This document shows positions 60,451 to 60,537 of a stretch of 60,537 nucleotides of DNA, one piece after another. The notes beneath the pieces are model-generated. The model made no database searches, was not told where the DNA came from, and saw only the letters and a program-made list of their open reading frames with translations. The stretch lies in NCBI RefSeq assembly GCF_003334255.1, contig NZ_QOWU01000027.1, one strand, 5' to 3'. The DNA is from Escherichia coli. GTDB taxonomy: Bacteria; Pseudomonadota; Gammaproteobacteria; Enterobacterales; Enterobacteriaceae. Each line of letters opens with the position of its first letter. Position 1 is the first letter of the stretch. The position numbers and the translations under genes are program-made.

Positions 60451-60460
60451 TCTGCGTTCT

Positions 60461-60537
60461 GGTGATGCTGCCAACTTACTGATTTAGTGTATGATGGTGT
60501 TTTTGAGGTGCTCCAGTGGCTTCTGTTTCTATCAGCT
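60461..60537 (+). mobile_element. insA: IS1, left end (terminal inverted repeat and start of insA); truncated by the window edge
   Basis: GGTGATGCTGCCAACTTACTGAT at 60461-60483 is the IS1 terminal IR as I recall it. The following sequence, ...TTTAGTGTATGATGGTGTTTTTGAGGTGCTCCA GTG GCT TCT GTT TCT ATC AGC T, gives the InsA N-terminus (M)ASVSIS from the GTG at 60516. Confidence 0.85.

Follow-up and report, generated by a model that had tools for sequence, protein, structure and literature searches.

The right edge of the Escherichia coli stretch analyzed here (60,537 nucleotides, hereafter the window) raises the question of how an insertion sequence came to lie immediately upstream of psuG, the pseudouridine-5'-phosphate glycosidase gene, and what this would do to the pseudouridine genes. 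The window ends with ...AATTCAGACAT TCTGCGTTCT GGTGATGCTGCCAACTTACTGATTTAGTG..., in which positions 60451-60460 (TCTGCGTTCT, reverse complement AGAACGCAGA) are the only native spacer between the psuG ATG and the element, so that the 10 nt given for this distance in an initial annotation made from the letters alone are correct. The element is IS1, of the IS1A type. Positions 60461..60537 (plus strand) are the first 77 nt of this 768-bp element, adjoin native E. coli sequence at 60460, run to the contig end and are identical to an annotated IS1A copy in NZ_AP027818.1. The 23-bp left terminal inverted repeat (IRL, GGTGATGCTGCCAACTTACTGAT, 60461..60483, plus strand) matched exactly and only once in the window, with 0 matches expected from 100 shuffles, and the first 22 nt of insA (GTGGCTTCTGTTTCTATCAGCT, 60516..60537, plus strand) begin with a GTG at 60516, which has the same 55-nt offset from the IS1 end as the annotated IS1 transposase CDS and is directed away from psuG. 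The earlier reading of a terminal inverted repeat followed by the insA start from 60461 is thus confirmed by the exact IRL, the 77-nt identity and the position of the GTG. A consensus scan also found an inward promoter-like site in the IRL, at the position of the insA promoter (CTGCCA-16-TATGAT, 60468..60495, plus strand), which is present in the full IS1 copies of strain 2EC1 as well; such a consensus match is by itself no evidence of function. Compared with the IS1A/IS1B-type copies of E. coli, the element has the same IRL, left end, insA offset and AT-rich target neighbourhood without any difference of its own, and only its insertion site is new relative to K-12 and to 5426 complete genomes. 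Indeed, the alignment to MG1655 (K-12) breaks off precisely at 60460, and megablast against the 5426 complete E. coli genomes placed the end of native homology at the same position for K-12 and thousands of strains.

The window holds 77 nt of IS1, and full 768-bp copies were seen in the comparator genomes only; the rest of the element is most probably missing because short-read assembly broke inside the repeat. At the other end, positions 1-77 belong to the terminus of an IS421 (IS4-family) element that lies within a molR-like WGR/DUF4132 gene, with native sequence from 78, and this left junction is common to 8 complete genomes (G1/2, G6/7, G8 and several porcine ETEC). Both window ends therefore stop exactly 77 nt into a multicopy insertion sequence (IS421 left, IS1 right), for which reason the window most likely represents a complete contig of a short-read assembly; ends of 77 nt at repeat borders suggest a de Bruijn assembler that finished with k = 77. 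Another draft contig, which carries a neighbouring insertion (L013, see below), breaks exactly 127 nt into IS1. The ends of the window are accordingly repeat-collapse contig ends and not biological boundaries.

In K-12, psuK lies directly upstream of psuG on the same strand without any IS1, according to the annotation and as the initial annotation had also stated (K-12 locus L002: psuK 4188..5129, 942 nt; psuG 3262..4200), and the two genes overlap natively by 13 nt. When the junction was placed on this layout, the break fell between nt 919 and 920 of the 942 nt of psuK, in codon 307 of 313 and inside E307 (G|AG), which agrees with the proposed position of IS1 at the far 3' end of psuK. Instead of an intact psuK with its 13-nt overlap, only the last 23 nt of the gene (nt 920-942; 60438..60460, minus strand) remain beside psuG, covering the first 13 nt of psuG, and IS1 follows. 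The native C-terminus of PsuK, ...SLVENAECLN, is encoded by GAG AAC GCA GAA TGT CTG AAT TAA, as seen in both sequence and translation, which identifies the TAA in ATGTCTGAATTAA (60438-60440) as the true stop of psuK; the TGA in ATGTCTGA that had been taken for the psuK stop is out of frame for psuK and this part of the initial annotation has to be corrected. The expectation that IS1 replaces the last psuK codons holds, with ECLN exchanged for G and a stop.

If the insertion is simple, a second junction with a target-site duplication should exist on the far side of IS1, which lies beyond the window. We predicted the truncated PsuK products for 8-, 9- and 10-bp target duplications and looked up their exact sequences in the protein collection. 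The product of a 9-bp duplication, a 310-aa PsuK' ending in ...SLVENAG, was matched exactly by 4 NCBI accessions named pseudouridine kinase of Escherichia coli, and it was located on 7 public contigs, while the 10-bp variant had no match in this collection. A 335-aa PsuK' variant is also present in the collection and was rejected, since it stems from the neighbouring insertion shifted by 1 bp. Two of the 7 contigs were read (L011 and L012): both end in ...GTGGAGAACGCAG|GGTAATGACTCC, or in longer form ...TCGTTAGTGGAGAACGCAG|GGTAATGACTCCAACTTATTGATAG, where GGTAATGACTCC is the right inverted repeat (IRR) of IS1, and in their flanks they match K-12 with 100% identity. Public draft assemblies thus contain the reciprocal junction psuK...AGAACGCAG|GGTAATGACTCC, and the native flanks of the window and of the reciprocal contigs overlap at 4202-4210 in the K-12 L002 coordinates. 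The window alone shows one copy of the 9-bp duplication, the psuG-proximal one at 60452..60460 (CTGCGTTCT, which is AGAACGCAG on the gene strand), and the duplication becomes apparent when this copy is joined with the AGAACGCAG of L011 and L012. A repeat of the bases around 60452-60460 had been predicted, and the 9-bp AGAACGCAG was found at the reciprocal junction in contigs of the same lineage.

These junctions also bear on whether the sequence, instead of being a chromosomal insertion, arose as a chimera in assembly or from contaminating Tn9 or vector DNA, the case which the initial annotation had named as its refutation. It is true that the contig ends in a multicopy repeat and that IS1 is present as 77 nt only; however, with 77-mers real reads must cover the junction, all flanks are chromosomal E. 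coli, and the complementary junction occurs, at an offset of exactly 9 bp, in independent assemblies and in a Logan assembly made from a raw run of this lineage. Because the reciprocal junction with psuK and a 9-bp duplication exists in such contigs, a vector, a Tn9 fragment or a chimera is unsupported, and we regard this reading as scarcely credible.

The link between the window and the reciprocal contigs is a shared lineage marker together with one sequencing run, not one contiguous sequence. The marker is a private 1-bp deletion at 48147 in cirA (46861-48852, minus strand; GCCGTCGCGG to GCCGTGCGG, non-homopolymer), private relative to K-12 and all best-matching genomes, which truncates CirA, the colicin/catecholate-siderophore receptor, to 291 aa. 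The exact 291-aa product was found on 22 public contigs, one of which, from run ERR1948968, matches the window over 10,557 nt with 100.000% identity, and the same run is the source of L012, the carrier of the reciprocal IS1/psuK junction. Since ERR1948968 has both the cirA frameshift and the reciprocal junction, a simple 768-bp insertion with a 9-bp duplication is the best reading. As a separate matter, the truncated CirA may bear on susceptibility to colicin Ia/Ib or to siderophore drugs.

A different reading is that the IS1 at the window end borders a larger IS1-mediated rearrangement (deletion, inversion or recombination), with psuK partly or wholly missing or located elsewhere. Among the complete genomes with IS1 in psuK that were examined in detail, 3 (2EC1, L1_E925 and VTB97584v) have IS1-adjacent deletions, which makes a secondary rearrangement in this isolate possible, and the far side of the element is outside the window. 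Against this reading, the exact reciprocal junction with the 9-bp duplication occurs on 7 public contigs, and the run of one of them shares the cirA frameshift and 100% identity to the window over 10.5 kb; we consider it unlikely. From these sequences, a simple IS1 insertion in the 3' end of psuK with a 9-bp duplication, and with the loss of psuG expression discussed below, is to our judgment quite probably the right explanation.

With regard to the background of the insertion, the K-12 alignment of the window spans 78 to 60460 only, and the relation to K-12 is mosaic. The yehI-yehQ side (78-21000) has 334 mismatches in 30 kb, reaching about 5% within single kilobases, and only 5 positions, one of them the cirA deletion, differ in the right ~35-38 kb (the 22000-60460 side; 99.986% identity over 35 kb), a pattern which suggests a recombination boundary near 20-22 kb. 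The YehI allele of the window is too common to mark a particular assembly, as 181 blocks have it. A Shigella origin was rejected on account of these few differences from K-12 in the right 38 kb and because the proteins that matched are labelled E. coli. In mdtQ (29406-30842), the window has an extra T at 30691 relative to K-12, whose mdtQ is an annotated frameshifted pseudogene, and the window gene appears intact, since its frame stays open for about 490 codons without a break. In addition, two repeat copies of ~80 nt (38595-38674 and 38711-38790; 91% cross-match) lie between mglC and preA and are probably REP/BIME elements.

How, then, would the insertion affect the two products of the junction? 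On the psuK side, PsuK' would keep residues 1-309, followed by a Gly and a stop (GGG TAA) supplied by the IS1 end, to give 310 aa. In the crystal structure of PsuK described in PMC9247573, the ordered C-terminal region reaches Asn308, and since residues 1-309 are kept, PsuK' is probably still functional as a kinase.

On the other side, both psuG (59512..60450, minus strand; ATG 60450-60448; 312 aa) and the nucleoside transporter gene psuT downstream of it (58168..59418, minus strand) are intact according to the ORF list, psuT also by K-12 annotation, and they stand in the K-12 order next to yeiL, rihB and nupX. V220A is the sole difference between the window PsuG and K-12 PsuG; Ala220 (59792) was also found in 9 of 9 other strains checked, and Val220 appears to be a K-12-specific substitution. 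The damage lies in front of the gene, where the Shine-Dalgarno (SD) sequence GGAG, 8 nt before the ATG, is split by the insertion as GG|AG. The psuG-proximal side now reads CACC|AGAACGCAGAATG, with ..CCAG in place of the SD, so that the leader changes from the native …GTGGAGAACGCAGAATG to …CACCAGAACGCAGAATG in the IS1 allele, and the predicted anti-SD pairing of psuG goes from -6.4 to +0.2 kcal/mol. An in-frame extension of PsuG to 320 aa (59512-60474), starting at a TTG in the IRL, was rejected as a start as this TTG has no usable SD, and an exact look-up of the extended protein gave no record.

By this arrangement psuG would lose the GG of its ribosome-binding site, would lose its translational coupling to psuK through the native 13-nt overlap, and would sit ~777 bp of untranslated antisense IS1 away from the psuK promoter, in which most transcripts should terminate, given the known polarity of such insertions. 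Either orientation of IS1 is classically polar, and in the polar mutations of gal and lac, as here, IS1 stands between promoter-proximal and distal genes and a loss of distal expression is expected; what differs here is that the upstream product is almost unchanged and that the distal gene also loses its ribosome-binding site and its overlap coupling. A search for an intrinsic terminator in antisense IS1 gave one weak match, no more than in shuffled sequences, and for this reason it is not counted as evidence.

The opposite outcome would be an activated or constitutive psuG-psuT, driven by a fusion or out-reading promoter in the IS1 end, and the initial annotation had likewise suggested that the two genes depend on IS1 read-out transcription. 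The IRL does contain an outward -35-like hexamer, TTGGCA (60469..60474, minus strand, reading from 60474 to 60469), and IS1 fusion promoters are documented by Prentki 1986, Goussard 1991 and Olliver 2005, as listed in PMC9330008. We considered this hexamer as half of a fusion promoter and rejected it: with spacers of 16-19 nt the best -10 candidates (GAATGT, AATGTC, TGTCTG) have 2/6 matches and lie over or past the ATG, with their ends at +4 to +7 of psuG, which would put the first base of any transcript within the gene itself. The blaTEM-1, blaTEM-6 and acrEF fusion promoters (PMC9330008) share with this site the outward -35-like hexamer in the IS1 end, but there is no correctly spaced -10 upstream of the start codon here, and this mechanism is therefore not expected at psuG. 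Moreover, insA is directed away, and consensus scans of the window end and of the full IS1 at the adjacent 2EC1 site found no promoter-like site facing psuG, which speaks against read-out transcription from IS1; activation would also have to act on a gene whose SD is destroyed, and we hold it to be very improbable. Since SD, coupling and direct promoter access would be gone and no promoter facing psuG is evident, we infer loss rather than activation of psuG, and probably of psuT too, although psuT could have its own promoter. For the pseudouridine pathway, which PMC9247573 presents with reference to Preumont et al. 2008, the expected phenotype would be strongly reduced PsuG, probably reduced PsuT, and a loss of pseudouridine catabolism at the second step.

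Is such an insertion found elsewhere? We surveyed 5426 complete genomes with two chimeric queries, one for each IS1 orientation, which cover ~640 bp next to the psuG start. The exact junction of the window was present in 0 of the 5426 complete E. coli genomes, and K-12 and all complete genomes checked lack IS1 at this site, as the initial annotation had supposed for the reference strain; further, the exact 36-nt junction had 0 matches in GTDB species representatives and 0 in JGI metagenome contigs. IS1 insertions elsewhere in psuK, within ~640 bp of the psuG start, were found in 13 of the 5426 complete genomes (0.24%). In the literature searched, no IS1 insertion in psuK or psuG was found, only psuK/fruA promoter mutations. 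The insertion is thus absent from that literature yet already in public draft assemblies, and it is a real, ordinary IS1 polymorphism.

The insertions in complete genomes involve the same gene and the same element as the window, many near the 3' end of psuK, but they have other target sites, some the opposite orientation and some adjacent deletions. In K-12 L002 coordinates of the target duplications (psuK 4188-5129), no other site lies as near to psuG as that of the window (4202-4210), which is also alone among those seen here in cutting the psuG SD at GG|AG. The nearest other site is that of strain 2EC1 (4203-4211), 1 bp away and in the same orientation, with a second IS1 and a deletion, and the draft contig L013 (PGJH01000053.1) has the matching simple right junction of a 2EC1-type event. 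The remaining sites are 4224-4232 in BL12, GS04 and BHD6 and, in a divergent background, 2017-19-1CC (opposite orientation), 4241-4249 in U1, about 4252 in VTB97584v (with a deletion), 4310-4319 in 2017.15.02CC, 4685 in L1_E925 (with a deletion), 4725-4733 in VG888-46E9, 4752-4760 in FFFEB2, and 4768-4776 in 23AR1101 and PCP06171 (opposite orientation), where the site was mapped in 23AR1101 only and that of PCP06171 was inferred from its identical 853-bp match span.

Two of these loci showed additional features. In 2EC1 (L001, NZ_CP047571.1, 3280-6160), psuK is lost over K-12 L002 4212-4724 and two IS1 copies are present, and psuG has a 6-codon in-frame deletion and several substitutions, so the locus, judged by its sequence, may represent operon decay after disruption. 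In BL12 (L014) and 2017-19-1CC (L015), both at 2711-3500, the target AACGTTGGC holds an IS1 variant in the same orientation, while the flanks differ by ~3% and the IS1 ends differ slightly; the shared insertion could have arisen twice, by separate hits on this site, or the allele could have passed from one background to another through recombination.

The distribution of these sites raises the possibility that the psuK 3' end and psuG start are a selected target, with recurrent IS1 insertions favoured in the gut for their effect on pseudouridine catabolism. The insertions of window/L011 and of 2EC1/L013, which are independent and equally oriented, have sites 1 bp apart, the 9-bp target at 4224-4232 was struck in two divergent backgrounds, and about 6 of the 11 sites are within the last 130 bp of psuK; psuK promoter mutations are also described as recurring in mouse-gut and long-term stationary-phase evolution (PMC9509342, PMC7858067). 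However, 0.24% is, by a rough estimate, close to what random IS1 placement would give for a 942-bp gene and a handful of copies per genome, so that selection is not needed for the psuK pattern, and the clustering near psuG comes from a survey which covered only the ~640 bp next to that gene. Moreover, the window insertion lies next to the part of the region with the lowest GC content (22-35% in 40-bp windows), and the IS1 sites of psuK gather around its two AT-rich troughs, which fits the preference of some elements for A/T-rich target DNA (PMC9330008, which lists Zerbib et al. 1985 on IS1 specificity). We therefore think selection of this target quite unlikely. A more specific version, in which the AT-rich psuK/psuG overlap would be an IS1 hot spot where the kinase is spared, the glycosidase is silenced and the alleles may be kept by gut selection, strikes us as highly doubtful. 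The simple insertion with expected loss of psuG remains the preferred reading.

If the hot-spot or selection reading were true, these alleles would alter the metabolism of pseudouridine or pseudouridine-5'-phosphate; malfunction of the homologous catabolic enzymes is reportedly toxic in plants. Otherwise the insertion has little importance outside strain-level annotation, and interest in it would rise only if cells with the kinase alone proved to build up pseudouridine-5'-phosphate and to show a phenotype that can be measured, or if psuK insertions proved to be selected. For the organism itself, the sequence indicates that this lineage of E. coli is very probably unable to finish pseudouridine degradation, with the kinase present and the glycosidase silenced, and the locus would serve as a worked example of how one IS1 hop can spare the upstream protein and remove the ribosome-binding site, the coupling and the promoter access of the gene downstream.
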